A stretch of 64,000 nt of DNA, from IMG/VR virus record IMGVR_UViG_3300038393_003172, positions 1-64,000 of that record; one strand, 5' to 3'. Shown one piece after another: positions 11,546 to 64,000 of the stretch. The position numbers and the translations under genes are program-made. Under the pieces are notes generated by a model. It saw only the letters and a program-made list of their open reading frames with translations, ran no database searches and was not told where the DNA came from. Position 1 is the stretch's first letter. Every line of letters starts with the position of its first letter. The stretch is from a virus.

Positions 11546-11623
11546 TTGCATAAAACTGGCCGGCTGTCCCATAAAACCGGCCCGGAACTGCATAAAACCG
11601 GGCGCGCGTTGCATAAACACGGG
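11546..11623. repeat. Four direct repeats (core CATAAA) at an exact 21-bp period upstream of rtcB
   Basis: CATAAA begins at 11549, 11570, 11591 and 11612; the first three read CATAAAAC(C/T)GG. Confidence 0.8.
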
Positions 11624-11652
11624 CTTCCGTCCCGCGAATCAGCCCGGCTGTC

Positions 11653-24387: not shown

Positions 24388-24389
24388 GT

Positions 24390-25361
24390 TCACAGTCCTT
24401 TGGTGTCGAATGCCTTGAGGGAGAAAACGCGGCTTTCCCAGGTGCGGGTGAATGCCTTGGCAATGTCCGGGTGGGCTTCCTTCAGCCCGGTTTCATCCAA
24501 GTACTTGCCGCTGCGGTGCTTCCAGTCCAGGGCCTTCTTGCCGTTGGGCAGGATCAGCTCGCCGCATTCGCCCATGGCGCGCTTGATGTCGAATTCCAGC
24601 GCCTCGGCCTCGGCCTCGCATGCCTTGGATTGCTGCTGCAGCGCGCGCAGGCGCAGAACCTTGGAGGTCAGGTCGGCATCGGCGAGCAGCGCCGGCACGT
24701 CCGATTGCTTGGCGTACATCCTGGCTATGTCAGCCAGGTCGATTGGCGGCGGAGGCACGCGCGCAAGCACATGGTTGTTCCAGAAGGCCAGGCCGTGCGC
24801 GCGCAGCGCGGCAATAGTTTCGTCATCACCCATCACCGGGTAGGTACGCAGCTCGTCCGCGCCGAAAAGCGCGGCCAGCATCCCTTTACGGCGGCGCGTC
24901 ACGCCCATGCCCCACATCACCTGCGCGGTGTAGTGAATGGGCAGGTCATCGGTGCCCGATTCGCCCCATTCCTTTGTCTTGAATGGGTGGACAGTCTTGA
25001 GTTCCGCGTTCCAGATCTCCGGGTCGCCGTCCAGCCGCAGTTCAAAGTCGATTTCCGAGGCCATGAAGCCGTACTCAGCGTCTTGGTAGCGGCGGTTGCT
25101 CGCCACGATCTCCACGGTGTGGCCTTCGTCTTCCAGGCGCTCCACCAGCATTTCGGCCACCGCGCCTTCCCACCGCTGGCCTCGGCGCAGCGCGCCCTTG
25201 TTCTTAACCTTAGTTTCAGCAGCAGGCGCCGTCTTTTTCTCGTAGAGGGCCATCGGCGTTGTCCACGGGCTGATGCCCATCACCGCGGCTATGTCGCTGC
25301 CGCCCAGCCACTGGCTGCGTTGGGTTTCTGGCGCAAGGAGGGTCAGTTCGCTCATGTCCAT
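24390..25361 (-). CDS. YqaJ-like (lambda Exo family) viral exonuclease
   Basis: LGGSDIAAVMGISPW.TP..LY.KKT; ELKT; P.HY..QV..M; adjacent to recT. Confidence 0.92.
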   Translation of the reverse strand: MDMSELTLLAPETQRSQWLGGSDIAAVMGISPWTTPMALYEKKTAPAAETKVKNKGALRRGQRWEGAVAEMLVERLEDEGHTVEIVASNRRYQDAEYGFMASEIDFELRLDGDPEIWNAELKTVHPFKTKEWGESGTDDLPIHYTAQVMWGMGVTRRRKGMLAALFGADELRTYPVMGDDETIAALRAHGLAFWNNHVLARVPPPPIDLADIARMYAKQSDVPALLADADLTSKVLRLRALQQQSKACEAEAEALEFDIKRAMGECGELILPNGKKALDWKHRSGKYLDETGLKEAHPDIAKAFTRTWESRVFSLKAFDTKGL

Positions 25362-30269: not shown

Positions 30270-30948
30270 GCGCGCCATGCAGTATGTCGCCACCAGCCTC
30301 CATGGCACCATTAAGAACCCAGGGTGTACTACCCTGCAGGTTTTGAATGGTGGCGAGTGCCAGCTGTTTCAGAAATATCGCTTCAGCAGATGTTTCGTCG
30401 AAGCTAGATTTCCCGGGGCTCTTTTTGAATTTCATCGGAGTGAACTGCTTAATTTTTCGGCCGCAAAGGCGGGCTTTGTAAGGCCGGATTGGCAAAGAGC
30501 AGTTGGCATGCCTGCCTACCCGTGGGGACATTGGCCGAGCACATCGTCCCCGCAGTCCCAAGCGGAGGCCATTTCTTATTGGCCTGAAGCGCACGGTACA
30601 CCGGGCGTAATACCCAAAGCAAAGCCAAGCCTTCCCCGGATGTTGGCATTTGCAACCTCATGGCACCGCAGCCGCCCTCACGCCACACGCTGGTGTGGAA
30701 AACATTTTGTTGGGAATACGCCCCCGATGGGGGAGGTAGTTACCACTCGTCTGCACCGGGCCACTACCCGAAAGCAGGCATCCATTGGTTGCGCCCCGCA
30801 ACGGAGGCGCGTTTTTTATGCAGCGGCTAGGCCGCAACCGAAAAGACAGCGTTCCGGGCTGTCCTGCCGCTGCACCCCTTCTGTCCGGAGTCTGTGCGGA
30901 GCAGACATAGATGAAACAGCAGTCAAACACTGCGGATAGGGGGCTCGC

Positions 30949-45642: not shown

Positions 45643-46202
45643 TGCCCTGCCTGCAAATCTTTTGGGCTCTTTGTCACAGCAGCCTCCCTTTTCTCTCTCT
45701 TTGGTTGATTACCTCTAAACAAGGGTCTGTTAGTCGCTTAAAAGCACACGGACAACTACCGTAGAAAGGTAATAGCCTTGGTGCGCAAAAAAACAGTCTA
45801 TTGCTTTCGCAATGCGCAATATTCCCTTAAATTAGTTCCTTCAGCTACACGGCTGATATAGTTTTTTCAGCTAGTTCATAAGCCACCCCGACGCGCAACT
45901 ATCGAAGGACGGAAATCATGAGGCGTTGCGCGCAACGGGTCAACGACTAACTCGCAAAAATGAGCGCGATCAAGATGAAACCAAACCCCGCCACGGTGCG
46001 CTCCCGGCGGCTACGAGACGAGCGAGCCAAGGAGGGCATCAAGGAACTGCGAGGTGTCTATGTCCCGCTGGAACTGCACACCGAGGCCAAGGAGGCCATC
46101 AAGGAGTGGCTGCGCTTGAAGCTGGCCGCGGTGAACGGCCGCGCGTAGAGGGAAATGGGTAGCCCGCCTCCCGGCGGGCTTGTGCTGCCAGGCAGCAATG
46201 GG

Positions 46203-46589
46203 TCAGGCGCCGCGTTTTATCCCGCACAGGAACGTCAGAACCTTGCCGGCGCGTGTCCAAACACTGAAGGGGACGTTGTCCTTTGGCTGCAGCAGACCGG
46301 CCCTGTCGATCTGCGCGCGCTTGTCCAGCGCAACATAGAACGGCCTGTCCGTCATGTCCTCGAAGACGGCATCGACAGCGTTGTGCTGGACCTGTGAGCG
46401 CTCGATTGTCACGAAACGGCCAGTCTTCATCTCGCCTATAGAGCTTATCCGGTTGTCGGGCACCAGCAGGCGCAATGCGCCGGCGTTCCCGCTCAAGAAG
46501 AACAGCCCTCGCTGCGCCAATTCGGAGTCCCAATAGTTGGTTTCCGTGATGTCCTGGCCGTTGTTGGCAACCTTAATGAATCCGCTCAT
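46203..46589 (-). CDS. Hypothetical protein (plasmid-type)
   Basis: I.N.GQ.I..TNYWDS..A..G..FLS.NAGA.RLL.PD pattern. Confidence 0.55.
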   Translation of the reverse strand: MSGFIKVANNGQDITETNYWDSELAQRGLFFLSGNAGALRLLVPDNRISSIGEMKTGRFVTIERSQVQHNAVDAVFEDMTDRPFYVALDKRAQIDRAGLLQPKDNVPFSVWTRAGKVLTFLCGIKRGA

Positions 46590-48086: not shown

Positions 48087-51000
48087 CCTCCGCAGCCAGG
48101 GGGCGCCGCTTACAGCCGGTGCGCCGGCAGGGGCAGGCCCTGCCGCAAGAAGCCGTGCCGATCCTGCTCGTGCTGGTACACGTCGAAGCGGCCCATGTCG
48201 CACAGCGCCAGCCTGGCGTCCAGCAGGTCTTTGCGGAACCCGCGGGGGGTGTCGGGGCGCTCGCCGCGCTCCACAGCGAACGCCTCGCGGACGAACATCT
48301 GTAGCTCGAGCGCCGTCTTAGGCAGGTGGCTCAAGTCCTCCGGAGGGGGCAGGGGGCGGAACAGCATCATGTGAGGCTCCTTGGTACTTCAGGGGAGTCA
48401 GGGGGCGTGCCCAGCATCACGGTCCATCGCCAGATCGAAGGTGCGGCTGTCAACGGCCAGAGGCACATCCGGGCAGGTGCTGCGCATGTGGGCCGCATAC
48501 CCGCCGTCGTCGCCGGGTGGCAGCGTCAGCCCTGGGTTTGCCATGTCAGCGGCCAGTTCCTCGGCCAGCGCGTCGTCTGCCCAGCCGTCCAGCATCGCCC
48601 GCGTGTGCGTGCGGACCTCATGGCCCAGCACCAGCAGCAGCGCGCCCACAAGGTCGTCGGCCTCGCCCAGCACGTCCACGTCCGCGGTGTCGGGCTCGTC
48701 GCGGCTGGCGCTGGTGATGGTCACCGACAGCGTGACCTCGTACTGCAGCGCGGGCCGACCATCGAGGCCGCCTTTCTTGGTAGGGTGCTGGCGCACCTGA
48801 ATGCCGTAGCAGCCCAGCTCCAGGCCGTCATCGGCGCTGTCGATGCTCACCCGGGCAGGCTTCAGCCCGTCGATGTAGCTGAACGGGCCCGATGAGGGCT
48901 GCCCCTTCAGGAACTCGGCCAGGAAGCGGGCCGCGAAGTCCAGTTGGTCGTCGGTGATGCGGTACATGGTGTGGCTCCTTCAGGGCATGGCGGGGAACAC
49001 GTTGTGGGCAGGCAGGCCCAGTGCCTCGCGCCGGCCGGCTTCTTCAAGAACAGTGCCGATCAGGTCGGACGCGATGTAGGCGGCCTCGGGGGTGTGCATG
49101 CCCCAGGTGAGCCCGTACTGCGCCACCAGCGCCCGGTAAGCGGCCTGCGCCTGTTCGCGCGTGTAGGGGTCCACCCAGGTCAGCGCCAGCCGCGCCAGCA
49201 GTTCCACCTGGTTTCCGGCCTCGTCGTGGTGGAGGCCGCACTTGTCGCCCACACCCGCGCGCGGTGTGAAGGTGAACGTGAACCGCTGGCGCTGGCTGCC
49301 TGGCACCGGATGCTTGGTCATCGTGCCGACCACTGAGCGGTTTGCGCGGACGTACTTCGTGCCGCAGGCGGTCCAAATGTCGAAGGTAGGCATGGCGGTG
49401 TCCTCCGGGTCAGGATTCAGTGGCGGGCTTGGCGGGCATGTTCTCGGTGTTCCAGATGCTGCGCACCAGCGCGCGCACCTGCTTGATGCCGGCTGGCGAC
49501 AGCGCAGCGATGTGCCGTGGGGCCTCGCGCTCAGCCCAGAAGCGCAGGCGCTGCGCCTCCAGCTCGGCCTCGATCTCCTGGGTGATGGGCTGCGCATAGG
49601 ACGAATCCCAGGACGATCCCTGCACCTTGCCGGTGGCGCGCGTCAGCCGGGAGCCTCCATCGCACACCACAACCGTGGGCGTGATGCGCTCAACGGTCAG
49701 TGCGCGCCAGAGGCCCCCTTGCTGCACAGCCAGCCGGTCGCCGGGCTTTACGTCGGGGTTCCAAGTGCTTTTCATGGGGTAGGCCCTCTCGTTGCGGTCA
49801 GGCAGTGCAGGTAGAGGCGGCCATGCGCAGCAGCTTGTCGGCGAGCTTGCGGCTGACCTTCAGGCGCTCGTTGTGGTGGCGCTGCAGCGCGGAGCCCTCG
49901 CCTGCGGCCTTGTAGCCCGCGAGGTCGTAGTTGTCGCTCCGGTTCAGGGCTTCCAGCAGGAACTTGAAGTCGGCGCCTGACAGGGCTTCATCGTCGGCGT
50001 CGGCGGTGGTATGGGTGATGGAGGACACAGTTCGGTTCCTTTTCGTGGGCAGCAGTGAAAGGGCGGTGATGGGTCAGGCGGCGGCGGTGCGGGTATGCAG
50101 CAGCGCGGCCAGCTCGGCGTTGCGCTGGCGCTCGCTGGCCAGGGAGGCGCGCAGCGCGGCGGCCTCGGCCTCGGCCTGCAGCGCGCGCGCGTGCCAGCCG
50201 TGCAGCCCCTGGGTCCACCACTCCTGCCCTGGGGGCACGGCGGTTGGGGCCTGCACCAGCGAAGCAGCGTTGGCGATGGCTGCGCGGGCGCCAGGCAGCC
50301 ATGCCGAGAGAATCAGGCTCCCTTCCTTGTTGGCGATCTCCACGCGGCCCACTGCCGCCTGAAGGGATTCCACAAGATCGCGCACGGCGTCGCGATGTTG
50401 CAAAGAGGTATTCATGGCAGGGCCTCAGACGACAGCGGCACGGGGCACGCTGATGTGGTTGGGGATCGTCCAGCAGTCATCCAGCAGGAACATCAGAACG
50501 GCGTAAGCGGCCTGCGCGCGCTTGACACAGATGGCGTGGTAGGCCATCGCCCGGCTTGGCCGCGCCTCCAGCCATTCCACGTGAGCCAGGCGCAGCGCCT
50601 CCAGCCGCGCGGGCCAGCCGCGGCGCTTCTTCATGCGCTCCACGGTGGGGAGGCGCAGGCCGCCCGGGTCGGCCACGAAGCCGTTCACCTGGCGCACAAA
50701 GGCGTTGCATTCCTCGGCCACCTCCAGCGCGCACGCCGCGTCCTCGCGCTGCCGGCGCTCGGCTTCCTGATCGTCAAGCTGCCTGCGCACCAGGGCCTTG
50801 TATCGGTTCTCTGCCGCTACTCCCATGTCGTTCTCCTTCAGGCGGCGCGCTGTGCGCCGTGCTGCAGTTGGTCGGTGGTCATGCGCTCGATGCGCTGCAG
50901 CTCGTAGCGCAGCACGTTGAGCGCGGTGTCGCAGGCGGGGGCGAAGGGGGAGGCAGTGCCGGCGCTGTGAACGCGCTCCGCAGCACGCTCCCGGGCTGCC

Positions 51001-52059
51001 TGCGCCAGCAGCGCGCGCTCGGATTCGGTAGTGGTGCTCATGCTGGTGCCCCCTGTCACGCGCTGCGGGTGGCCGCGATCCGCAGCTCGGCGCGGCGCAG
51101 CTCGTCGTTGAGAAGGTCGATGGCGGCGCGCGCCGTCAGGTGCTGCCGGATGCCGTCCACCGAGGCGGGGTCGCTGCCGTGCGTGGTGCTGCGGGCGATC
51201 AGCTTGGCGAGCCGGGCGTCTGCGGCTGCGCTGCTGCAGGTGGGGTCGCCAAACTCGGCCTCAACAAGCTGTCGGGCGTTGGCTGCCATGCCCTGCAGCA
51301 GCTTGCGCAGGTGCTCGTCCTGCTCGGCGCGCGTGATGTGCAGCACCGCCAGGTTGGAGATGTGCGAGGCGGTGCGGCTGGCGTCGGTGTTCATGTCAGG
51401 CTCCGGTGTGGAAGGTGCCCAGCAGCGCCAGCGCGGCACGGCCCCGCTTGGCGATGGCGTCGGCGTCGAAGTCGCCGTTGGGCTCGATGGCCCAGGAGGG
51501 CGGTTGCTGCTGCACCCCGTGGCCCGTTGACAACTCTGTGTGGGCCGTCGCCGCGCGCAGCGCATCGGACAGCGCCGGCACGGCATCCGCTATGCGGCAC
51601 AGGCGCTTGAGCTCTGAGGTGGCCTTGGCGCGGCCTTGCACGGTGCCTTTCTCCAGAAGGGTCAGCAGGACGGGCAGCGTGCCCTCCCAAGTCATGCGCA
51701 GGTCGATGGTCTGCTGTGCGGGGGCGGGGGCCGGCGCAGGTGCCGGGATGGGCAGCCGGAACCCCGGGCGGCGCCAGCAGGTGGTCACGGCCTCGCCGCT
51801 GCAGTTCCGGGTGGCGCCTGACGGCATACGCTCGGGGGCGTCGATGCAGTAGCAGGCGGCGTCATAGGTGATGCCCTGGAAGTCGGCACGCAGGTTGTCC
51901 TCGGTATAGGCGGCCGACGCCAAGGAGCCGGTGCCGTAGAACAGGGCAAAGCCGGCGTGTGGCGTTTCGGGGGTGACGGCGGGCAGGGGCATGTCGGGTG
52001 CTCCGTGGTTAGGCGGGGAACGGGGGGAGCCCGGTGCGGGGCTCCCCTTGAGCGGTGCG

Positions 52060-53469
52060 TCAGGCGGTCTTCTTCGCGCCGCGCTTCGCGGGCACCTTCA
52101 CCGGGGCCGCTTCAGCGGCAGGCGCTGCGGCGGCACCCTTGCGCGCCTTCGTGCTGCTGCTGCGCGCGGCCTTGGCAACGGCCTGCTGCACTGCCTGCGC
52201 CACCTCCGGGGTGGGGGCCTGCTCGGGCTGCGCGGCATCCTCGGCCGCGAGCTGCACCGGCTCGGCGCTGACGGCCTGCACCGGGGCCTGTTCCTCGGCC
52301 GCGCCAGCCGTCGCCAGCTCAGGCACGGGGGCCTCCACCGTGGCCTGCTCCGGGGCCGGCTCGGCGGCAGCCGCAGCGGCAGCCAAGTTCAGCGTCACGG
52401 CAACCGCCGAGGGCGCCGTCTCCGACACGCTGGCGCCAGCCTTCGCGCACATCTCGCGCAGCGCCTTCCAGGCGTTCAGCTTGATCGCCTCGCCAGAGCC
52501 AAACCAGGCGCTGTCCAGTCGAGTGCTGTTCGTCTTGCGGCGCTCGTGGTCAACGAACTCGGTCACGCTGTTGAGCAGCGACCATGCGTTGCCCTTGCCG
52601 CACAGGTTGGCGCCGATCAGCTTGCCGTCGAACAGCTCCATCACCCGCTTGTAAGCCTTGCTGCGGCGCACATCGGGCAGCGCCTTACCAGGGGGCAGCG
52701 ACTGTGAGGACAGCAGCACGTCCGCCACCAGCGCGTCGGCCTGCGCCTCGGTCACGTCCACCTGCGCCATCAGCCGGGCCTCGACAAGCCAGCGGTCCCA
52801 GGCGTTCACCACGATCCCCAGGCGCTGGCGCACCTCGTCGGCCTTGAACTTCGTCATGTGCGGCACCCGCACACACTGCACGACAGGCCCTTCCGTGGTG
52901 TCCCGCTCGGTCTGCCTGCTTCCGTTCGCCATGGATGCGCCTGCAGCCATCGTCAGCGTGTTGTTGCACACCACGCGCACCGCGGTGAACTTGGCCGTGG
53001 TGGACATGGAGCCGTCGAAGCTCGTAGCGAGCAGCACATAGGGGCGCACCTGATCGTGGCCCACCACCGGGGCACCGTCGTTCACCCGCGCCAGCCCCCA
53101 GATGCGCTTGCCGTCCAGCAGCGAGCCGGCGGTTTCCAGCGTGAAGCCGCCGGCCTCGGCCAGCTTTCCGAAGAAGTCCAGCACCTCGCCCGGCTGGACC
53201 ACCTTGTAGCGGCTGCCCACGATGCCCAGCTCCGCGCCGGTATCGCTGCGCACCAGCGCGTGGCCGCCGCTGACAGGGTGCAGGGGGCTGTCCTCCCCGC
53301 GCTGGAACATCAGCGCGGCGCGCTCCACGCTCCAGTCCAGCCCCGCCTCGCGGCGCCAGGTTTCGAGGTCGGCGCCAGCCGACAGGCGCTGGCCCAGGCC
53401 GTGCCACGGGGTTTCACCCACGAAGGCGATTGCGTCACGGCCGGTGGTGTTGTCGATCAGGTGAGCCAT
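52060..53469 (-). CDS. DUF932 family protein with Ala/Glu-rich tail
   Basis: ETPWHGLG, VRSDTG..LG.VG..Y..VQP.EVL.FF, LETAGSL..GKRIW.LA, LATS.DGS, RVVCNNTL, AW.LLN.VTE.VDH. Confidence 0.9.
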   Translation of the reverse strand: MAHLIDNTTGRDAIAFVGETPWHGLGQRLSAGADLETWRREAGLDWSVERAALMFQRGEDSPLHPVSGGHALVRSDTGAELGIVGSRYKVVQPGEVLDFFGKLAEAGGFTLETAGSLLDGKRIWGLARVNDGAPVVGHDQVRPYVLLATSFDGSMSTTAKFTAVRVVCNNTLTMAAGASMANGSRQTERDTTEGPVVQCVRVPHMTKFKADEVRQRLGIVVNAWDRWLVEARLMAQVDVTEAQADALVADVLLSSQSLPPGKALPDVRRSKAYKRVMELFDGKLIGANLCGKGNAWSLLNSVTEFVDHERRKTNSTRLDSAWFGSGEAIKLNAWKALREMCAKAGASVSETAPSAVAVTLNLAAAAAAAEPAPEQATVEAPVPELATAGAAEEQAPVQAVSAEPVQLAAEDAAQPEQAPTPEVAQAVQQAVAKAARSSSTKARKGAAAAPAAEAAPVKVPAKRGAKKTA

Positions 53470-53545
53470 TTGTATCTCCAGAGCGCCCGCGTGGGGCAGG
53501 TTGAGGGTCCAATTGGGTAGCGCCTTATTGCGCCGCCGTGAGGTA

Positions 53546-53621
53546 AATTTAGGTGTTGCGCCCAATGGTTGCAAGGTAATTCATCATTCCTTGCCCCCCT
53601 GTTTGGGTAGCGCCGCGCTAC
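53546..53621 (-). promoter_or_regulatory. Promoter with operator B plus upstream operator A
   Basis: TTGCAA-17-TAAATT; TTAGGTGTTGCGCCCAA at 53549-53565; GTAGCGCCGCGCTAC at 53607-53621. Confidence 0.8.
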
Positions 53622-53639: not shown

Positions 53640-55325
53640 CTAGGCGGCGCGCTGCGCAGCCAGCAGGGCAACGGACACGCTGGTGCCAGCGAAGGCGTTG
53701 TCGTGCTGGCGCGACCATTCGTGCTGCAGCCCCGGCAACACGTCCTTGCCGCGCATGCCTGCAGGCAGCACGGCCACAAGGCGGCCCTTGGGTGCGAGCA
53801 GTTGTGACGCGGCCTCGATGTGCGCCTGCGCGCGGCCCTGGCTGAAGGGCGGGTTCATCACGATGCGGTCGAACGTGCGGCCCTGCTGGCGCATGGCCTC
53901 GGCCCACTGCAGGAAGTCGGCCTCATGCACTTCCGTAAATCCCTTGGCCTTCAGGATGGTGCAGTGCAGGGGGCTGATTTCCACGCACGTCAGCCGCTCG
54001 CGCGGCAGGTGCTCGGCGATGCCGCCGTGGCCCGCGCTGGGCTCCAGCACGGTGTGGCCTTCGCCGATCTGTGCCATCTCGACGGCCTGCTGCGCCAGCG
54101 CCTCGGGCGTCGGGTAGAACTGGTGGGCCTGCTGGTCCGGGATGCAGCCGCTGGAGACGATCTCAGCCAGCACATCGGCCGGGCAGTAGTCGAACTCAAA
54201 GGCGTCCGGGTCCTTGCCCCGCTGCGTGCCGCCGATGGCCTGCAGCACCGCGCGCGCCTGCTGGCGCACATGCTTGTCGGTGCTGGTGCCGTGCGGGTAG
54301 TACTTCAGCACGCGCGTGTTGTGCAGGCGGTGCCAGCGCTCCGGGTAGCCCCCCGGGTTCGTGCGCTCATGCACCGGCTCGGACGCTTCCAGCAGGCCCA
54401 GCACCGCGAAGGGCAGCGGGCGGCCCATCATCACGAATTCCTTGTGGGGCTTCTTGGGCTTGGTGCGGAACTCGCTCGGTATGGCTGCGGGGTGCAGGTA
54501 GGCCAGCACCTGATTGAGCCGCACGGCCATGTCGGGATGCACCTCCAGATGACCGTTGCCGTTCAGGTACACCCGCAGGCGCAGCGCGCCGCCATCCAGC
54601 GTCAGCCACTTGCCAGGCTGGCGCTTCTGTGCGTTCTCCACGATCTTGTTGGTCGCATAGTGCGGCGGTTCGTCCCGCCCCATGAAGCGCGCGATCACCA
54701 CACGCAGGTCGTTGATGAGCCCGCACCTGCCGCCATAGCTGCCCCATTCGTTGAGCACGTTGGTCAGGATCATTCGCTTGAAGAACCCCTCGGGCCTGTT
54801 CGTGACGTGCTCCCGGGACAGCCCTTGGAAGATGCCGTCCACGCGCTCCGCGAAGAACCGCTCCCGCGAGTGCAGCAGCTCCGCGATGGTAGACAGCACG
54901 GATTCACGCTCGAAGGCCGGCGTGGCGTGCGTCCTGATGGCCTCGTGCCATTCGTCCCGGCGTGCCTTGGGCATGTGGTTGAGCACGTCCGTCAGGCTGA
55001 TGGCCTCCTGCCAGAAGTAGGCGTTGAGCGCTGCCATGGCGCCAGCGGGGGCGAACAGCTCCTTCACCGTGGCGCTGATGCTGTGGCGCCGGTCCTTGTC
55101 GGTGTTGCCGTCCACGAAGTAGCTGAACACGCCCCCCAGCTCCCCCTCCATGGTTTCGGCCAGCCGAACGATGCGCAGGCGCGCGGCCTCGTACCGGCCG
55201 AACAGGGAATCCAGTGCCCCCGTGGGTGCTGGGGCGAAGAACTGCGGCGCGTCGTCATCGACCACCTCGCAATGGGCTGGCGCTGCTGCAGCGGCCACGT
55301 CGAAATCCAGCGTGTCTTGTGTCAT
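53640..55325 (-). CDS. DUF4942-domain N6-adenine-type DNA methyltransferase
   Basis: FYPTP, VLEPSAGHG, DF, IVMNPPF, LVAVLP; N-terminal FF.ERVDGIF.GLS..H.TN.P.GF and Y.NGNGHLEVHP. Confidence 0.88.
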   Translation of the reverse strand: MTQDTLDFDVAAAAAPAHCEVVDDDAPQFFAPAPTGALDSLFGRYEAARLRIVRLAETMEGELGGVFSYFVDGNTDKDRRHSISATVKELFAPAGAMAALNAYFWQEAISLTDVLNHMPKARRDEWHEAIRTHATPAFERESVLSTIAELLHSRERFFAERVDGIFQGLSREHVTNRPEGFFKRMILTNVLNEWGSYGGRCGLINDLRVVIARFMGRDEPPHYATNKIVENAQKRQPGKWLTLDGGALRLRVYLNGNGHLEVHPDMAVRLNQVLAYLHPAAIPSEFRTKPKKPHKEFVMMGRPLPFAVLGLLEASEPVHERTNPGGYPERWHRLHNTRVLKYYPHGTSTDKHVRQQARAVLQAIGGTQRGKDPDAFEFDYCPADVLAEIVSSGCIPDQQAHQFYPTPEALAQQAVEMAQIGEGHTVLEPSAGHGGIAEHLPRERLTCVEISPLHCTILKAKGFTEVHEADFLQWAEAMRQQGRTFDRIVMNPPFSQGRAQAHIEAASQLLAPKGRLVAVLPAGMRGKDVLPGLQHEWSRQHDNAFAGTSVSVALLAAQRAA

Positions 55326-55364
55326 GGTCAGGGCTCCTGTCGTTGGTAGGTGTGCAGGGGAAGG

Positions 55365-56036
55365 TCAGGCAGCGAGGGGCACGGCAGGTGCAGCGGTGCC
55401 AGCCGCGCGCGTCACTGCAGCCTGTGCCTCGGGCGGGAGGTCGGCCACGGGCACGCAGTCGCCGGTCTGGTCGTAGAAGTAGAGCTCCATCTGCCCCACG
55501 TCCGCGCCTGCCGCATAGCCCAGCGGCTGCAGCACCTCGGACAGCCGCGCCGCGGTGCCCAGCAGGTCCAGTTCCTCGCGCACGTTCTCCACCACCTGGT
55601 CAAAGTCGTCCTCGCGGTTCCTCTGCACCATGTCCACGGCCTTGCCCGTGGCTGCCTGCAGCGCGGCGGCATCGTCGGCCGCAGCAGGGTGGAGGGGCTG
55701 GCGCAGCCGAATGTCGAAGTACTCGGCCAGCGTCACGGTCGGCGTGTTGGTGGCCGTGTCGGCCAGCGTGAAGAACCCGGGCATGTCGTAGAAGCGCCGG
55801 GCGCGCTGCAGCACCGGCTCCGCGTCGACGCCAGCCAGCACGGGCAGCTTGGCCTCATGCCTGCCCGTGACCATCAGCACGCCGCTCGCGGGGTCGTACA
55901 CGGCAGCAGTGATTTCCTCGCTGGGCATCCAGCCTTGCACCTCGGCGGTCAGGTCGTGGAAGGGGGCGCTGCAGTGCGCCAGCGCGAACGAGGCGGTGGG
56001 GCAATCGGCAAGCGTGAAGTCGGCCTTTTTCGACAT
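55365..56036 (-). CDS. Hypothetical protein
   Basis: AGGAG RBS; directly downstream of an operator-B promoter. Confidence 0.65.
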   Translation of the reverse strand: MSKKADFTLADCPTASFALAHCSAPFHDLTAEVQGWMPSEEITAAVYDPASGVLMVTGRHEAKLPVLAGVDAEPVLQRARRFYDMPGFFTLADTATNTPTVTLAEYFDIRLRQPLHPAAADDAAALQAATGKAVDMVQRNREDDFDQVVENVREELDLLGTAARLSEVLQPLGYAAGADVGQMELYFYDQTGDCVPVADLPPEAQAAVTRAAGTAAPAVPLAA

Positions 56037-56093
56037 GGTGTGCTCCTGTGCCAGCAGGCGGGTTGCGGGTTTGGTTCGTGCTGGCATGTCGTG

Positions 56094-56197
56094 ACATTAG
56101 GCGTGACACCAAAATGATTGAATCAGAAACACGGATTTCTTACCCCCTCATCGCGGGATGCGTTGTCGTTGAATCTTTTTGGTGTAGCACCTAATGT
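56094..56197. promoter_or_regulatory. Divergent promoter pair, each with operator B
   Basis: Minus: TTCAAT-17-TAATGT with inverted repeat at 56097-56113. Plus: TTGAAT(56169)-17-TAATGT(56192) with inverted repeat at 56178-56194. Confidence 0.8.
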
Positions 56198-56240
56198 TGT
56201 CGCATGCAAACGCGCAACGCAACCTGAAAGGAGCGACGGC

Positions 56241-57068
56241 ATGCAGGTCAAATTGATCGTGGGCGCGACCCACGCCTATGTGTGCATCACGAAGGAAAAC
56301 GGCGGGTCGCTGGACTGGCGCCTGGACGGCGGGTGCGGCCCCGTGGCCGACCTGCGGCGCCAGATCGAGCGCGAGCGCGCAGACATCGCGCGCCGCGAGG
56401 CGCGGCTCGCCACGCTGGCCGAGGCCGCCGCGGTGCTGGAACTCAGCGGCCATCGGTGAGGGTGCAGCCATGCAAGCCCCTGACACCAAGCCCGGCGCCT
56501 ACTTCGTCAGCGTGCAGGACGGTGACCGCTTCGCTGCCGCCCTCGGCCCGTTCGTGGACGACCACGCGGCTGCGCTGGCGCAGATCGAGGCCGTGCGCGC
56601 GCTGGCGCAGCGGCTGCAGCCCCGCGCCGCGTTCTACGCCTTCGGCACCTGCCGCCTGGACCACGACCACCCGCAGGCGCAGCGGCCCGGCACGCTGAAC
56701 GACTACTTCCCGGCGCTGGCGCTGCCAAGCCGTGCCGCCTGGGTGCAGCAGCAGGGAGCAGCCGCGTGAACGCGCGCGCTGTGTACCGGGCCGTCATGCG
56801 GTGCTACCGCATCGCGCGGCGCGACCCGATGAACGTGGCAGGGTTCGTGGCCGCCACCGGCGCTGTGCGCGAGCTGACGGGCGTTTGGGACGTGCCCATG
56901 CCCCCCACGCCGCAGCAGCGCGCCGGGTGGGAACGGCCGCCGCGCTCGCGCTTCGTGCCTGCCGACTTCGGAGGCCCCGAGCGCGAGGTGCTGACGCAGC
57001 CGGGCCGCCTGTGCGTGTGGCGGTCCATGACGCTGTTCTGCAGGCGCACGCGCGCCGCCCCCCGCTGA
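56241..57068 (+). other. Three-gene rightward mini-operon (56241-56459, 56470-56769, 56766-57068), all hypothetical
   Basis: RBS AAGGAG; closely spaced or overlapping ORFs after the plus-strand promoter. Confidence 0.6.
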
Positions 57069-57537
57069 CGCCTGCGGCTGCCTGCCGCAGCACCCGCCCG
57101 GCCAGCGCCGGGCGTTGCCGTTTGTGCGCCTGGCTGCCCGGTGCCTGCGCACCTGCAGCGCCAGCGCGCGGCGCCAATGCGAACGGGGGCCGAAGCCCCC
57201 CGAGGTGTTGTGTGTGCGCGGCTCGGTCAGGGAGCCGCGAGGTGCTCGTAGAGCTCCGGGTGGCGCCGCTGCATTTCGTCGGTGGCGATCTGCAGCGCCT
57301 GGGCCTCGTCTGCGGGCAGGCTGCGCACATAGTCGCCCTCGTACCGGAGGGTCAGGCGTCCGTTGCGCACCCGCACGGTCAGGAACCCGTCGCCATCGGC
57401 GCACCATGCGCGCGCCTGCGGGTAGAAGGTCCAGACGATTGCGCCGGCGCGTTGCGTGCGCAGCGCAGCGGGCGGGGCAGAGGGGGCTGGCATGACTGGC
57501 TCCTGTGCGGGTAGCAGGGAAACGGGGGATGGCTCCA

Positions 57538-58185
57538 TCACCACAGGTGGCAGTTGTCGCCATAGTCGCCGTCCTCCAGCGCCTGCACGCTGGGCATCAG
57601 TTCCACGACGGACTTGTCGGGCTCATCAATGCTCTGCGCCCACACCAGAGCGACCTTCCCGTTGGGCAGGTACACCCGCACGTAAGGCCCACCGCCGCGG
57701 TCCTCGTCGTACTCGACCCGGATGGGGGGCGCCTCCTGCGCCTGCGTTGGCGCGGCTGCAGGTGGGGCCGCAGGTGCTGGCGCTGGGGCAGGTGCTGGCG
57801 CAGCGAAGCAGGCGAGGGCCGTGCGCCGGGCAGCACTGAAGCTGCCGTAGGCGTTGCCCAGCAGCGCCAGTGCCGCGTCCTGCGTGATGGCCTCGCTGAT
57901 GTTCTCGATGCCCGCGGGACCGCCGCTCCAGCGCGCGCGGTTGCCCTCCAGCGCCATCACCAACTGCTCGCGCGCTTCGTCGTCGGTCTTGGTGGGGTCG
58001 CTGGCCTGCGCGCGCAGCACGTCACGGGTGGCTTCCTCCAGCGCGCCGAGCGCCGCGAGCAGTTGCGCGCGCGCCTCGCACTGGCGCTGTCGCGCTGCCT
58101 GGTGCTGCTGCCGCACCGCAGCCAGCGCCGCGGGGTGCGGCTGCGCCGGCGTTTCCGTGGCAGGGGGGGAGATCACGTTGCTCAT
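57538..58185 (-). CDS. Hypothetical protein, LPNGK-domain paralog 1
   Basis: C-terminal PYVRVYLPNGKVALVW...VVELMPSV. Confidence 0.65.
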   Translation of the reverse strand: MSNVISPPATETPAQPHPAALAAVRQQHQAARQRQCEARAQLLAALGALEEATRDVLRAQASDPTKTDDEAREQLVMALEGNRARWSGGPAGIENISEAITQDAALALLGNAYGSFSAARRTALACFAAPAPAPAPAPAAPPAAAPTQAQEAPPIRVEYDEDRGGGPYVRVYLPNGKVALVWAQSIDEPDKSVVELMPSVQALEDGDYGDNCHLW

Positions 58186-61145
58186 GTGGGGCTCCTTGGG
58201 GGTGTGCGTGAAAGGGGGGTGAGGGGCGTCAGATGCGGGGCGGCATCTGCGCCAGCACCAGCGTGAAGGCGGCGTTCCACAGCGCGGTTTCGGCGTCGTG
58301 CTCCGCTTCGCTGCGCCGGCCTTCCTCAACGTCGCTCGGCAGCACCGGCTCGCGCCCGTGCAGGTCTTCGAACGCGGCAGCCATGAGCATGTTCGTGTCC
58401 AGCGGCGCCTCTGCGGTGCCGGCCAGCACCTGCGCCAGCACATCGGGCAGCAGGTACTCGCGCAGGAGCTGCACGTAGCGCCCGGCCAGTTCCAGCGGGG
58501 TGCAGAGGGGGGCGACGGGGGCGGGGGCAAGGGTCAGGGCTTCCATGTGCGGCTCCGGGTAGGCGGGAAACGGGGGGGCTCAGAACGCGTTGCGCCACAT
58601 GCGGCGGTCGGCCTCGACGCAGGCGAGCGTGTCGTACAGGTTCGCCAGCCGCTGCTCGGCACGGTGCAGGGGAACGCCGGCCTCAAGCCGCGCATAGGCT
58701 GCCTTCAGTCGGCGCGCACTGAATGCCTGCTCAACGCGCCGGATGCGCCGATACATCAGCGCCTCGGCGCACTCCCAGGGTGCGGTGCGCTGCAGCCGGG
58801 CGAGCAGCCCCTGCTCGTGCTCCCGGTTCTGCCGCAGGTATTCGCCGACGCTGCGCCGTTCCTCGCGGCGGTTGCGCCCGTAGAACAGGGGCTCCTTCGG
58901 CTGCAGCGGCGCACCGGGCTTGCGCCGCTGCTGGCGCTGCACGGCACGGGCGATGTTCTGGCGACGGCGGATCAGGGGGGTGATGGCGGTCATGGCTGCG
59001 TCCTCATCCCTGCGCTTCGTTGGCCTGCTGCGCTGCACGCGCTGCCTGCTCCTGCATCAGCCGGTGCATCTGCAGCACACCGGGCAGGCGCCACTTGAGG
59101 AACTGCAGCGCCTGCTCCCGCAGGTCCTGCTCCTGCGCGTTGCGGGCGAGGCAGCGGGCCTCCCCCTGCCACGTTGCGCTGGCGCTGCTGGCGATGGTCA
59201 CCAGATCCGCGCGCGCCGCCTGCTCATTCGGTGCGGCGCACACCGTGGCGATCAGCATGGCCTCGTTGGCGTCGTGCATGGCCTGCGCGGCGCACTCGAA
59301 GGCTTTCAGCGCGGCACGCTGGGCGTCCACGGCCTGCAGCCGGGCTTCGGTTTCGGGGGTCATGGTCGTTGCTCCTTTGGGGGTAGGCGGGAAATGGGGC
59401 AGGGGTCAGAACGGGATGTCCTCGAAAGCTGGCAGCGGCAGTGCATCGGCCGCCTCCTGTGCGGCGCGCAGGGAGTCGGCGTCGTCCCACCAGCGGATCG
59501 GCGGCATCACCTCCACCGTGTCCACGCCAGCGCGGCGCGAGGCCCACGCGATGGACGTGGCGCTGCACTCGTCCGTTGCGCAGGTGAGCACCACCAGGTC
59601 GTCGGTCTGCGCCAGCGCGCGCCGCGCCATGCAGACGGCCAGCGCGGCGGTTTCGTAGCAGTAGCCGTGGATCGGCTGGCTGATGAACGCGCCGTTGTCG
59701 TCAACCGGGTGGAAGGCGTGGATGGTGAACATGGCAGGTGCTCCGGGTAGGCGGGGAAGCGGGGTACGGTCAGTCGCGGGATTCGAGGAAACGGGCCACG
59801 TCGCGGCGCGTGCGCAGCTTCACGGGTCGGTATTCGGTGCGCTGGGGCAGGCCACCGCCGGTGACCAGCACCGGGTCCAGCGCCTGCACCGCACCGCAGG
59901 GCAGCAGCTCGCAGTCGTATCCGTTGCTGTGCAGCCACTGCAGCATTTCGTCCTGCTCGGCCGTGGCGCCTGCGGGCAGCACGAGGTCCAGCGCGAGGAC
60001 GGTGCAGCGGTGGTAGGTGTCGCTCACCTGCTGCACAGCGTGTTCCGGGTCGGCTGCCTGCACGCGCGCGGTGCCGCAGGTGCCAGTGGGGTTGTCCCAG
60101 TCCTCGGGGAAGCAGTAGAGGGCGTCGTAGGCGGGCATGGTGGTGCTCCGGGTAGGCGGGCAGGGAGGGTCAGTGCAGGTAGGGGGCAGCCGCAGCGTGG
60201 GCCTCGGTCAGCCGGTAGGCGGCAGCCAGCAGCGCGTCGTCGCTGCGCAGCAGCAGCGCGCACTCGCGGGCATGTTGTGAGGCCTCGCGGTGCGCCGGGC
60301 CACGCACGCAGTCGGGCACGTCAGCCAGCGCAGCGCGCACGCGCGCCAGCTCGGTGGTCAGGTGCTGGCGCAGGCCAGCAGCGGAGGCAGGGTTCAGCGT
60401 CATGGTGGTGCTCCTGTGGGTAGGCGGGCAGGGGTGTCAGGTGCGGTGTGCGCGTGGGCGGATGGCGTCGGCCACGCGCCGCGCGCGCAGCCACGGGTCC
60501 GTGTGGTAGGCGCGGCAGTAGCCCCGCTCCAGCGCATAGGCCCATGCAGCCTCGTGCGTTTCGAACTGCAGGCCGTCCGCGTCCAGCCGCTTGAAGCGCC
60601 CCTTGCCGCCCCACTGGTTCGTGAGGTCCGGGTACAGGCGCGCGACCTTCAGCGTGTGGACCGTGCCGCCCCCGTGATGCACGGAAACGCACACGGGGGG
60701 TTGGCTGGCGGTCACGGGCTCCTGGGTGCAGGTGAGGCGGCGGTTGGTCATGGCTGGCTCCGGTGTGCGGGTAGGCGGGTCACAGCAGGCCGAGGCGCCG
60801 CGCGTGTGCGTGCAGCTTCTGGCGGGTGTTGGTCAGGTCAGCCGCTACGTGCCGGGCCTTGCCCTCCTGCACCAGCAGTTCGATCACCTCCAGCCGCAGG
60901 TCCGTGTCCGGGTCAACGACCGGGGGGGCGGCGTTCTGCACCCGGCGCAGGCGGTCGGCTTCCTCCTGTGCCTGCTGCGCCTGCCGCTGCGCGCGCTGCT
61001 CCGGGGTTTCCGGCGGCAGGGGGGGCATGGACAGCAGCTTCTGCACAACCCGCAGCAGGCGGGCATCGACGCTGGACAGCGGCAGCAGGGGCGGGGTGGC
61101 GGGCATGGCGGGGCTCCGGGGGGTGTGCGTACAGGGGGGCGGGTT

Positions 61146-61478
61146 TCAGAAGCGCACGTACTGCGCGCCGCTGTCGGTGGGGTCGGTGTCGGCGGTGGGC
61201 AGCAGCACCACCGCGCACAGGTCGCCTTCCTCGGCCATGGCGTCCGGGTACACATGCAGCGCCTTTCCGCCCGGGAGGGTGATGTGCAGGTACGGGCAGG
61301 TCACATCGCCCTCCCGCTGCACCTGCACACCCGTGATGGGTTCGAAGGGCTCGGCATAGGCCATGTCCGCGCGCTGCTGCTGCCTGTACGCCTCCTCCTT
61401 CCAGCGGGCGGCTTCTTCGCGCGCCGCCTGCAGTTCGGCCAGCAGTTCATTCCGTTCGTGGTCAGGCATCAGTTCCAT
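61146..61478 (-). CDS. Hypothetical protein, LPNGK-domain paralog 2
   Basis: EPITGVQV...PYLHITLPGGKALHVYP...AVVLLP. Confidence 0.65.
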   Translation of the reverse strand: MELMPDHERNELLAELQAAREEAARWKEEAYRQQQRADMAYAEPFEPITGVQVQREGDVTCPYLHITLPGGKALHVYPDAMAEEGDLCAVVLLPTADTDPTDSGAQYVRF

Positions 61479-61532
61479 GGCGGGCTCCGGTGTGCGGGTA
61501 GGCGGTGCGGGGGGGTAGGCGGGGGCAGCGGC

Positions 61533-61907
61533 TCACCACGCCTGCGAATGCGCAGCGGGGGTGCCGGATTCCATGGCGTCCACGCTGGCGTGCAGTTCGA
61601 CCGCGCTGCTGGATTCGTCGTCCGCACTGCGCGGGTACACGCACAGCGCCTTCCCGTTGGGGAGGTAGATCACGAGGAAATCGCCGGCCCCCATATCGCT
61701 GCAGGTGTCCACCTGCACCCCCGGGATCGGTTCGCTGCGCTGCGGGTGCGCCTGCACCGGCTGCGGCTGGCGCAGTTCAGCGGGCACCGGCACACCTGCG
61801 CGGCTGGCTGCGGTCAGCACCGCCTGCTGTGCAGCGGCCAGATCGCGCAGCGCCTGCGCATAGGTTTCGACGGCCTGCAGGTGGGCACGGATGGCGGGGG
61901 TATTCAT
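61533..61907 (-). CDS. Hypothetical protein, LPNGK-domain paralog 3
   Basis: EPIPGVQV...FLVIYLPNGKALCVYP...AVELHASV. Confidence 0.65.
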   Translation of the reverse strand: MNTPAIRAHLQAVETYAQALRDLAAAQQAVLTAASRAGVPVPAELRQPQPVQAHPQRSEPIPGVQVDTCSDMGAGDFLVIYLPNGKALCVYPRSADDESSSAVELHASVDAMESGTPAAHSQAW

Positions 61908-62962
61908 GGCGGGGGTTCCTGTGTGTGCGTGTAGGGGTCAGGCTGCGGCGTGGCAGGAGCGCACCGCGTCGTCCGCGCGCACCAGCAGCGGCAGCACCGC
62001 GTCGGCGCCGCAGCGGTCCAGGGCCTGCACGAAGCGGCGCACCCGGGCCAGCACCGCACGGGTGGGCAGGTGCCCGGTGCGTGCCGCTGCAGCGCCCTCC
62101 CGCGCCATGCGCGCCAGTTCGTGCGCACCGGGCACAGGCAGCCGGGGCAGTTCGGCAGCAGCGGCGTCCAGCACGTCCAGCAGCGCGGCGTCCGGCTGCC
62201 CGGCTGCGGGGGCGGCAGGGGCAGGACGGGCCACGCGCCAGCCGGTGTCCGAGTCCAGCACCACGACCCGGGCGCCATCCAGCCCGCTGCGCTGCGCTGC
62301 TGCCTGCTGGGCAGCCTCCAGCGTGTCGAACGGCGGGGTGTGCATGTCGAACGCGGTCACCTGCACTGCGCCGCTAGGCGGCTGCTTGCGGGTGCGGCGG
62401 GCGGGGGCGGTGGATTGGTAGGCGATGCGGAACATGGCGGTTCTCCTGTGCGGGTAGGCGGGCGGGGGGTGTTCAGCGTGCGTTCGGCACGAACAGGGCA
62501 GCGAAGGCGGCGTCTGCGGGCAGGCCCAGCGCGCGCACCGTCTGCACCGCATCCAGCGGCGCGGCGTTCACCCGGGCAGGCACTGCCGCGACGGCCTGCG
62601 TCTGCGCAGCCGGCACGCCCAGCACCAGCACCACGGCAGCCAGCAGCGCCAGTGCAGCGGTCAGCAGCGCCTGCAGGAGGCCCCGCTGGGCACGGGCAGC
62701 AGCGGCAGCGTCCGCAGCCATGGCGTCAGCGCGCGCATCCCGGGCCTCCTGGCGCGTGCGGTACACGTCCACGGGGGCACCGTCCCGCACCAGCGTCCAG
62801 CCGATTTGCTGGCGCGTGGCACGGCCGGTTTGGGGATTCAGGGCATAGGCGCGCTTCACTTGGTAGGTGTGCATATATGGCTCCGGTTGGCGCACGCACA
62901 GCACCGCGCGCGCGTGGTGCGCTGCGTTTGTGGCGGTGTCTTGTGTGCGGTGCATGGGTGAA

Positions 62963-63026
62963 ACATTAGGCGTAGAACCCAATAGTTGTAGCCCCGCATT
63001 CCTGGGTATATGTAGCGCCGCGCTGG
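62963..63026 (-). promoter_or_regulatory. Head promoter of the small-ORF array: operator B plus degenerate operator A
   Basis: -10 TAATGT; TTAGGCGTAGAACCCAA at 62966-62982; GTAGCGCCGCGCTGG at 63012-63026. Confidence 0.7.
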
Positions 63027-63039
63027 CATATTAAGTGCC

Positions 63040-63520
63040 GCCCTTATATATGCGCCCGGTGCTGCTGATATATATATGCGGCACCGGCTGCCCCGCCTGC
63101 CTGCACCTGCAGCGCTGCCCGGGGCTGCCTGCTGTAGCGCACACCTGCACCGGCTGCCCGGGTGCTGGCCACCTGCTGCCCGTGCTACCGCACGCATGCC
63201 CTGCCCGTGCCTGCCCGGGTGCCTGTGCTGCCCTGCCTGCTGCTGCCGCAGGTGTGCCCGGCTGCCTGCACTGCGCAGCTCCTGCACCGGCTGCACTCCT
63301 GCCCGCCTGCTCCTGCACTGCGCACCGGCTGCCCGTGCTGGTGCTGCCTGCCTGCGTGTGCCCTGCTGCGGCTGCCTGCTGCCCCGGGTGTGCCGTGCCT
63401 GCCCGGGTGTGTGCCTGCCTGCTGCCCGCCTGCTGGGGCGCGCAGCGCCCCGGGGCAGGCTGCACGGGTGCCCGGTGCCGGGTGTGCCGGTGCCTGCGCC
63501 CCTGCCCCCGCCCCGCTGCG
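63040..63520. repeat. Low-complexity TGC/TGCC-rich, A-poor tract
   Basis: GCACCGGCTGC at 63081, 63147, 63284 and 63322; CCGTGCCTGCCCGGGTG at 63205 and 63393; preceded by TATATATGCG twice. Confidence 0.8.
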
Positions 63521-63769
63521 CACGCGCGCCGCAGCTGCGGCCCCACACGGGCCGTTCGCTCGACCAGGTGCCACACCCCCACAGCCAGGCCGAACGTGCA
63601 GACAGCGCCCGCGTCGCGCCCCAGGGGGGGAGGTAAATCGTTGGGGCTTCGAGGGGTCGAAACCGCGGTGGGCCTCAGGCGCAGATTTTTTTCGTCCAAA
63701 AAGGGGTTCCTCGGGCCGCCGCGTGCCTTTTTGCGCTGGCCGCTGCGAAACCACTTGACGGCACGCGCG

Positions 63770-63798
63770 TTGTGTGTCCGATAGCGCGGCGCTACAAT
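63770..63798 (+). promoter_or_regulatory. Rightward promoter overlapped by operator A
   Basis: TTGTGT-17-TACAAT; ATAGCGCGGCGCTAC at 63781-63795. Confidence 0.7.
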
Positions 63799-63912
63799 GC
63801 GCGCACGCCTGGTTCGGTGCTGCCTGCCAGGGGAATTTGCCCACCGCGCCAGCGGTCAACCCGGTTCCGATCCGGGAGCCCAGCGTGGGACAGGTATTTC
63901 CGAAAAAAATCT

Positions 63913-63940
63913 AAGCCCGCCGCAAGCGGGTTTTCCTTTT
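63913..63940 (+). terminator. Intrinsic terminator
   Basis: AAGCCCGC-CGCAA-GCGGGTTTT followed by CCTTTT. Confidence 0.75.
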
Positions 63941-64000
63941 CTGGAGAGGGTTCGCGAGCAGCGGCGGGGTTGGTTGTTGCGCGCGATTTGCCGGGTCACA

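Follow-up and report, generated by a model that had tools for sequence, protein, structure and literature searches.

An intergenic 11-mer as a candidate start-associated tag in a 14-gene array of a soil and rhizosphere virus record

Introduction

Why should one 11-nucleotide word recur, always on the same strand, in front of a row of small and mostly unrelated phage genes? This question is raised by a gene array at positions 57227-62874 (minus strand) of the IMG/VR virus record IMGVR_UViG_3300038393_003172. The window analysed here is the first 64,000 bases of this single 73,208-bp record and has a G+C content of 66.6%. A preliminary description, made from the letters of the window, had depicted the array as a set of modular genes joined by a conserved spacer, which would serve either as a recombination point or as a shared signal for translation or antitermination. 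The best reading of the evidence given below, with a probability of about one half in our estimate, is that the word is a start-associated tag acting at the level of messenger RNA (mRNA) and carried in a portable leader.

The gene array and its tag

The array comprises 14 open reading frames (ORFs), g01 to g14, whose order runs from position 62874 down to 57227. Each extends from ATG to TGA and encodes 77-215 amino acids; the coordinates and counts given earlier hold. In the longest-ORF forms of these genes, the G+C content at third codon positions (GC3) is 0.83-0.92 and that at second positions (GC2) is lower, which is the pattern of real genes. No genes overlap within the array; the gaps are 28-54 nt long, with one exception of 10 nt. 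Overlaps are seen at 8 of the 28 same-strand junctions of the other operons, according to approximate gene calls. ATG starts and TGA stops were each found in 13 of the 13 array genes counted, as compared to 57 and 54, respectively, of 75 genes elsewhere, for which starts were assigned by our own crude caller based on GC3 and Shine-Dalgarno (SD) signals.

The tag reads CCCGCCTACCC on the minus (coding) strand and GGGTAGGCGGG on the plus strand. Downstream of g01 (62874-62473), exact minus-strand copies are located at 62452..62462 before g02 (62435-61938), 61513..61523 before g04 (61478-61146), 60769..60779 before g06 (60751-60437), 60418..60428 before g07 (60403-60170), 60150..60160 before g08 (60138-59770), 59745..59755 before g09 (59732-59406), 59381..59391 before g10 (59363-59004), and 58557..58567 before g12 (58546-58229). 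The copy before g06 directly follows the TGA of g05, and those before g08, g09, and g12 abut GGAG. The exact copy before g04 is the distal member of a tandem pair, the proximal member being a 10/11 copy at 61496..61506. The place of the tag is taken by a B-variant with the core ACGCACAC at 61923..61930 before g03 (61907-61533), 61123..61130 before g05 (61106-60780), and 58202..58209 before g13 (58185-57538); a fourth minus-strand copy of ACGCACAC, at 60804, lies inside a gene. A 9/11 copy (CCCTGCTACCC) at 57509..57519 precedes g14 (57493-57227). The element, as exact copy, near-copy, or B-variant, is therefore present in 12 of the 13 internal spacers. The exception is the untagged 10-nt junction at 58994..59003, which couples g10 to the Arg-rich g11 (58993-58580). 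All exact copies and variants listed in the preliminary description, including a 10/11 copy at 52007 outside the array, were recovered at or within two bases of the positions named there.

The 73,208-bp record as a whole contains eight exact copies on the minus strand, all of them within 58.5-62.5 kb, and none on the other strand. Allowing up to one mismatch on both strands, 12 matches were obtained versus 1.66 expected, and none of 100 dinucleotide shuffles reached 12. An identical 11-mer is common to eight of the 12 spacers, while the best of 2000 composition-preserving shuffles gave three. The coding strand carries all eight exact copies and every near-copy that stands beside a gene.

This one-stranded distribution of the exact word, together with its clustering towards one side of the packaging genes, is also what strand-specific recognition sites for a nick or nuclease in virion DNA could produce, as in phiKMV-like and tf phages. 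The tag has a partial likeness to the phiKMV consensus ...CCTA/CTCCGG (PMC3517423). The published sites, however, are not tied to gene starts, while here every copy precedes an SD, including the B-variants, which are devoid of the CCTAC core. We regard nick sites as the least probable of the explanations considered.

A profile hidden Markov model (HMM) built from the spacers recovered all 12 of them and three weaker, sense-oriented members ending at an ATG. The strongest is an outlying leader (CCCGCCTAACC...GGAG...ATG) at 51990..52023, before the gene 51992-51396 (nhmmer E 5.7e-4), which contains the 10/11 copy at 52007. The other two are located at 55323..55360, before the DNA methyltransferase gene 55325-53640 (E 0.022), and at 56034..56062, before the gene 56036-55365 (E 0.12); all are on the minus strand. 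The earlier remark that other operons lack the motif is thus accurate for the rightward and structural operons but has to be relaxed for these three further leftward genes.

Spacer layout, composition, and structure

Alignment of the 12 spacers with MAFFT resolved one homologous element, in line with the idea of a modular array joined by a single type of spacer. Its layout is a TGA, a C-rich run, the tag, an optional (GC)ACA(CC), GGAG, 6-8 nt, and ATG; the pattern of TGA, C-rich run, tag, GGAG, and ATG described previously is seen in 12 of 13 internal spacers. One spacer has GGAA instead of GGAG. The tag is located 0-7 nt 5' of the SD, with spacing variants of 0, 3, 5, and 7 nt, and 10-17 nt separate the end of the SD-proximal copy from the ATG. 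The interval between the preceding stop codon and the tag varies from 0 to 18 nt by script and reaches 24 nt in the alignment.

The spacers consist of 55% C, 19% A, 18% G, and 8% T, as compared to 37% C and 34.5% G in the coding sequence of the array, and almost all G residues belong to the SD or to CG steps. Such strand asymmetry of the whole spacer is an RNA-type property and is unexpected for a DNA site. By our own gene calls, C-rich, G-poor leaders (C 0.40-0.62, G 0.12-0.33) precede nearly all leftward genes between about 47 and 62.4 kb, the main exception being g11 with its coupling to g10. Such leaders are missing from other operons. The array is therefore the most regular part of a 16-kb leftward block.

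The placement of the tag resembles that of the stoperators of L5 and Cluster A mycobacteriophages, which are asymmetric sites of 11-13 bp that occur in multiple copies, in short intergenic gaps, and always oriented with transcription (PMC9283540). In this case, a monomeric phage repressor bound to the 11-bp site would block RNA polymerase in one orientation and silence potentially toxic early genes in the lysogen. The temperate appearance of the phage, with an int-alpA RNA and helix-turn-helix (HTH) regulators, agrees with such a role. However, the presumed promoter region of the operon (62875-63085) contains no operator copy in this orientation at up to two mismatches, and the copies are limited to one leftward block instead of being distributed genome-wide in both directions of transcription. 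Depletion of G and T over the whole spacer, with its RNA-type strand bias, is not needed for a DNA site. Pfam scans recognised no repressor with a second DNA-binding domain, although HTH_3 proteins are encoded. A stoperator-like function therefore seems unlikely to us.

Folding of four spacers gave minimum free energies (MFE) of -2.2 to -11.2 kcal/mol; the centroid was open in two of the four, three were no better folded than shuffled sequences, and no conserved or shared hairpin was found among them. The predicted energy for opening positions -16 to +5 was 6.7 kcal/mol in 13 array genes and 7.8 kcal/mol in 13 other genes of the leftward block versus 10.8 kcal/mol in 46 other genes (Mann-Whitney p 0.001 and 0.009, respectively), a comparison that the crudely called starts outside the array may bias.

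C-rich, G-poor, unstructured RNA resembles Rho-utilisation sites. The spacers could accordingly be taken for RNA signals acting on transcription, that is, for sites of Rho loading, antitermination, or pausing. C is three times as frequent as G in every spacer, the spacers are unstructured, and g11 encodes a protein with an Arg-rich N-terminus and a pI of 11.5. On the other hand, the folded spacers contain no boxB-like hairpin, neither a NusG nor a sigma family was present among the Pfam matches of the 81 other proteins scanned, and a Rho site needs no exact 11-mer. We consider a signal of this kind very improbable. The shared signal postulated earlier is best understood as one for translation, given its occurrence in the sense orientation only, its nearness to the SD, and the open, G/T-poor leader; no evidence was obtained for its antitermination variant.

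Scans for other signals were negative. A promoter scan of 56000-64000 identified a single sigma-70-like site, on the other strand at 56091, and none in the spacers; no terminator-like site was detected in the spacers, and Rfam at gathering thresholds found nothing in the array. The attC sites of integrons are imperfect inverted repeats that fold as hairpins at each cassette boundary; an attC-like site was rejected since no inverted repeat occurs within the spacers. Read-through into a polyprotein was also dismissed, with spacer lengths being a multiple of three in 6 of 13 cases versus about four expected.

The 73-kb record contains six canonical G-quadruplex motifs on the plus strand and one on the other, at positions including 58497-61113 and 51969. 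Five of the seven are within the array, on the template strand of the operon. Only three tagged spacers carry a canonical motif, and the G-quadruplex was not retained as a common feature.

Conservation of the tag and growth of the array

The mean pairwise difference between spacers is 0.07 inside the 11-mer and rises to 0.54 and 0.60 in the two flanking stretches of 12 nt, a contrast inflated by a register that was anchored on the motif. The spacer element is located upstream of all three paralogs of the array, g03, g04, and g13, despite their amino acid identity of 35-37%. Its retention before such diverged genes implies that the element has outlasted the saturation of their coding DNA.

Similarity between spacers drops with distance along the array (Spearman rho -0.41; 16 of 5000 permutations were as low, p 0.003). 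This distance effect supports the copying of the tag and SD as a unit while the array grew. Adjacent spacers being more alike than distant ones would, however, also be expected if the spacers were an evolutionary footprint or recombination linker. In that event, an SD-bearing spacer would have been copied with each gene, gene conversion would maintain the likeness, and the short homology would allow cassette exchange, with no specific reader being involved. Further points in favour are the tandem double tag, found in one spacer (before g04), and the termination of spacer homology at the start and stop codons. Support for the spacer as a recombination point, one of the roles suggested earlier, is indirect. 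RecT- and YqaJ-type genes are present, as the preliminary description stated: a RecT-like gene was identified at 23056-24393 and a RecE/YqaJ-type exonuclease gene at 24390-25361. Repeats termed PeSL and CUP have been reported as mediators of such insertions and deletions (PMC2839356, PMC4122927, PMC3490853).

Several observations do not fit a mere linker. A discrete 11-mer is conserved within spacers that otherwise differ in both sequence and length, the element is retained next to paralogs with saturated coding DNA, and the differences among g03, g04, and g13 are swaps inside the genes rather than at the tag. The four soil and rhizosphere runs compared contained the identical array sequence only; joints with short sides of 20-32 nt and 80% likeness, seen in these runs, were treated as noise. 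Metagenomic homologs of g13 occur on contigs of 5157 bp (75% identity) and 2288 bp (59%), those of g12 on contigs of 5157 bp (84%) and 7476 bp (68%), and one of g14 on a contig of 2288 bp (85%). The matching contig sizes suggest that g12-g13 and g13-g14 are retained as neighbours in relatives. A footprint or linker without a reader is, in our judgement, a doubtful explanation.

Proposed action of the tag

In the mRNA-level reading, the private sense-strand 11-mer would act in messenger RNA as a start tag, carried by a leader of 28-54 nt that is C/A-rich, nearly free of G and T, and has the tag upstream of a short GGAG SD. Each orphan cistron of a long transcript, early or accessory, may receive from the leader an open site of its own for ribosome loading, one with neither competing start codons nor local structure. 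These leader features were computed from the sequence, and the mechanism built on them is our proposal. As a second step, a sequence-specific reader, either an RNA-binding protein or an RNA, of phage or host origin, would recognise the 11-mer and raise, shut off, or process the whole tagged gene set together; recognition of this kind is probable because the conservation has sharp edges. Finally, the within-array statistics point to the tag plus SD as the unit that would have been copied during array growth, so that every added ORF would have brought its expression signals along. The repeated homology of 25-35 nt could, as a side effect, support exchanges by the RecT/RecE-type system.

Several points weigh against this reading. 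Ribosome loading alone leaves the conservation unexplained, since an unstructured leader needs no exact 11-mer. A search for an anti-tag RNA in the 73-kb record found nothing beyond what shuffled tags find, and pairing of the tag with the 16S rRNA of two Burkholderiales sequences reached -16.2 kcal/mol at best, as compared to -16.5 ± 1.7 kcal/mol for shuffles. The only hint of an RNA chaperone is a match to Phage_ProQ_C_like below the Pfam cut-off (20.6 versus 27 bits; E 7e-4) in a 121-aa protein encoded at 49410-49775 (minus strand) in the same leftward block, which makes this protein a weak lead as a candidate RNA-binding partner. An oriented, asymmetric DNA site of the stoperator type predicts the same pattern of strand and placement. 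The runs that contain the region include no RNA run, the motif-anchored register inflates the contrast in conservation, and the crude gene starts may bias that in opening energy.

The reader might also be a phage-encoded small RNA bearing the mirror image of the tag. The record may be incomplete, which leaves room for such a gene: a spanning contig is 88,188 bp long, and contigs encoding the array proteins measure up to 119,573 bp. Within the 73-kb record, however, the best mirror comprises 10 bp with one G:U pair at 27770-27779, inside a coding frame. The best non-coding duplex (-31.7 kcal/mol) is weaker than the shuffled mean of -33.6 kcal/mol, 22 of 30 shuffles being equal or better. A small-RNA target is thus an improbable identity for the tag.

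Relatives and population variation

No match to the array was found among GenBank phages with blastn. The pattern of tag plus GGAG gave only single chance matches among those listed for IMG/VR, and a search of IMG/VR for two tags 330-360 nt apart returned one unrelated contig with a G+C content of 46.5%. A longer tag pattern had 20 matches in metagenome contigs, most of which read as coding sequence; their contexts were unlike the array and none matched its proteins or DNA. The exact tag occurs once each in three of 161 loci, a set that includes the surroundings of ParB-methyltransferase and terminase homologs, and a crude search for repeated 10-mers in the collected loci revealed no analogous array. 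The 14 array proteins had no tblastn match in 275 loci. The neighbourhood of the best DUF932 match consists of ordinary overlapping small genes.

An alignment of g13 homologs found nothing in IMG/VR or in metagenome contigs. Its three weak matches in 401 Burkholderiales genomes (E 2e-4 to 1e-3) were set aside as products of an Ala/Pro-rich composition; one of them has an internal stop. The tag plus GGAG was matched in 22 of 401 genomes of one family; among the places listed, no genome shows more than one separate site, and no tag array was seen. Five Burkholderiales genomes (26.3 Mb) contain 20 tag copies versus 29 of a reversed control, which does not support the reading of the tag as a word abundant in the host. 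Searching the literature for the tag string gave, among the matches listed, only unrelated papers as judged by title and the start of the abstract, and nothing was found on conserved intergenic repeats of early genes.

Comparison with described systems

The closest described system, by analogy, is that of the start-associated sequences (SAS) of Cluster K mycobacteriophages (Pope et al., 2011, PMC3203893; 2025 survey, PMC12699233), which the preliminary description had already named. SAS are short asymmetric repeats, nearly always of one orientation, that immediately precede the starts of non-structural genes; they are associated with unrelated gene families, are rare in host genomes, and have been proposed to control translation (PMC3203893, PMC12699233). 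The consensus, GGGATAGGAGCCC, contains AGGAG as the SD, is located 3-7 bp from the start codon, and is accompanied by a strong preference for ATG (PMC3203893). The functional role of SAS still needs experimental verification according to the 2025 survey (PMC12699233).

The tag of this study is likewise asymmetric, has one orientation (eight copies versus none), belongs to a leftward accessory, non-structural block with a bias to ATG, and precedes unrelated genes. Unlike SAS, its sequence (CCCGCCTACCC versus GGGATAGGAGCCC) is C-rich and stands 5' of a separate GGAG, ending 10-17 nt from the ATG. Since the tag neither is the SD nor lies 3-7 bp from the start, it lacks two defining features and is not a member of SAS. 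Further differences are the lack of an ESAS-type inverted repeat, the limitation of tag copies to one operon and three weak outliers, and a host of a different phylum, probably a high-G+C proteobacterium. What sets this tag apart is that it is separate from the SD, is confined to one operon, and has no detectable mirror RNA.

Two further analogies drawn earlier, to PeSL and CUP repeats, do not extend to the composition of the spacers. The PeSL elements of T4-type phages are also repeated regulatory spacers between small, non-essential orphan genes and possible exchange points, but they consist of a sigma-70-type early promoter and a terminator stem-loop (PMC2839356, PMC4122927). The array spacers contain neither a promoter nor a stem-loop, and the array genes would be cistrons of a single transcript. 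CUP repeats belong to plasmids and bear a promoter, whereas no promoter is detectable in the 28-54-nt spacers. Described as the control element of a plasmid regulon, CUP of IncN plasmids resembles the tag in being repeated before several genes of a leading-region-like block, and recombination between the repeats is thought to delete genes (PMC3490853). The C/A-rich (ACA) enhancers targeted by GcvB are also single-stranded sequences 5' of the SD that affect translation and can be masked by a trans-acting RNA (PMC3879156). They are loose host motifs of a chromosomal regulon, in contrast to an exact, phage-private 11-mer for which no partner RNA was found.

Array proteins and flanking regions

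None of the 14 array proteins matched PHROGs or Pfam at E <=0.01, and paralogy within the array is restricted to g03, g04, and g13, which share a C-terminal domain (E 6e-17, 9e-8, and 0.002) and the above-mentioned identity over aligned stretches. This agrees with the earlier view of mostly unrelated, uncharacterised ORFs. Several of the proteins are acidic (pI 4.3-4.9). Encoded by the sole internal gene that lacks a tag of its own, the 137-aa product of g11 could bind nucleic acids. For the common LP(N/G)GK domain, AlphaFold predicted a small beta-rich fold (pLDDT 79); this model, obtained along the lines of the structure prediction suggested earlier, had no PDB or BFVD match at E <=0.001. 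The ESM Atlas gave nothing usable for g11 and the C-terminal domain of g13. A match to an Acb5-named cluster (TM 0.51) was discarded, as an overlap of 54 residues is too short to mean anything. The array proteins had been suggested to act in anti-defence or host takeover; no family, fold, or atlas match bears this out, and an anti-defence role is a guess from context.

The likely end of the operon is a GGGGGC-UUCG-GCCCCC hairpin at 57185..57200 (minus strand), 27 nt past the last stop codon, which was read from the sequence and its fold. It has no T-run, so it is unlisted by the terminator scan, and folding of the 66-nt stretch gave no significant z-score. The leftward block as a whole is followed by a CCCGCC-GGGA-GGCGGG hairpin at 46139-46178 (minus strand), just after its last gene (46203-46589), and then by CTACCC; this is likely a terminator, in which both halves of the tag occur by coincidence.

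Upstream of g01, an A+T-rich patch with the words ATATATATAT, CATATATAAG, TTAATATG, and TACATATAC occurs at 62950..63085 (minus strand) in a region of 70% G+C. It is presumed to be the promoter or operator region; a scan with the sigma-70 consensus found no site in it. Between this patch and the packaging genes, at 63085-63540, about 450 bp of low-complexity sequence are made up of GCAGG, GGCAG, and GGGCAG words as read on the minus strand; the plus strand is C-rich. The region has no coding signature, contains three GCAGGCGGG words, a partial mirror of the tag, and might be a packaging site, a replication site, or a long leader. Just past the window end, before the ParB-methyltransferase gene, a tRNA-like RNA was detected at 64054-64135 (plus strand) of the record by Rfam (tRNA, 48 bits, E 4e-7), while ARAGORN reported none.

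Source record and phage character

The sources of the sequence are soil and rhizosphere metagenomes, and eight DNA runs contain the region. The 88,188-bp contig covers the whole stretch with one difference, and the proteins on the longer contigs are identical to those of the array; the record may therefore be incomplete relative to the whole element.

The rightward genes to the right of the array encode a ParB-like/DNA-methyltransferase fusion, a large terminase, a portal, a prohead protease, and a major head protein. The fusion gene lies just beyond the window, on the plus strand at 1646-3328 of locus L001, in which position 1054 corresponds to 64054 of the record. To the left of the array, a DUF932 protein is encoded at 52060-53574 and a DNA methyltransferase of 561 aa, identified with PHROG, at 53640-55325 (both minus strand). 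The record contains two methyltransferases besides the ParB-like fusion and several HTH regulators, including HTH_3 proteins. An int-alpA RNA (Rfam RF02996) was detected at 30820-30888 (plus strand) with 39.1 bits versus a cut-off of 35.8, which supports an integrative, temperate lifestyle. Based on its head and packaging genes, RecT/RecE-like genes, HTH regulators, and int-alpA RNA, the record looks like that of a temperate tailed phage. The nearest terminases, with identities of up to 64%, are mostly within Burkholderiales genomes, and the host is probably a high-G+C proteobacterium. None of the GenBank phages is close, terminase identity to the closest being at most 54%.

The DUF932 protein, the DNA methyltransferase, and the ParB-like/methyltransferase fusion that flank the array form a gene set which we take to be typical of plasmid leading regions; DUF932 and two methyltransferases hint at a leading-region-like block. 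Between positions 1 and 30000 of the window, one protein matches the MobA/VirD2 relaxase nuclease domain (PF03432, E 2e-9) and one matches RlaP (E 1e-4), and an RtcB ligase is encoded at 10299-11729. The relaxase domain, RlaP, and RtcB represent plasmid-type and RNA-repair genes inside a phage record.

Implications

The tag of this array is separate from the SD, unlike SAS as described in 2011. The 5.6-kb operon is a natural test bed, with tag-to-SD spacings of 0, 3, 5, and 7 nt, two tag subtypes, a tandem copy, and the untagged g11 as a control, for finding out at which level, RNA or DNA, start tags act and by what they are read.

A more far-reaching idea, which we hold only tentatively and think unlikely, is that the tag serves both as the address label and as the plug-in socket of a regulon that is expressed first and acts in counter-defence or host takeover. 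One reader of CCCGCCUACCC would switch more than 12 orphan genes on or off together, and RecT/RecE would add, drop, or swap ORFs via the tag plus SD, making this a recombinase-free, integron-like capture array in a temperate phage.

Should there be a reader, its control would extend to a whole block of orphan genes beside the DUF932 gene and two methyltransferase genes, for which early or establishment functions are plausible. The array design can also serve directly as a model for the insulated expression of multiple genes in high-G+C hosts.

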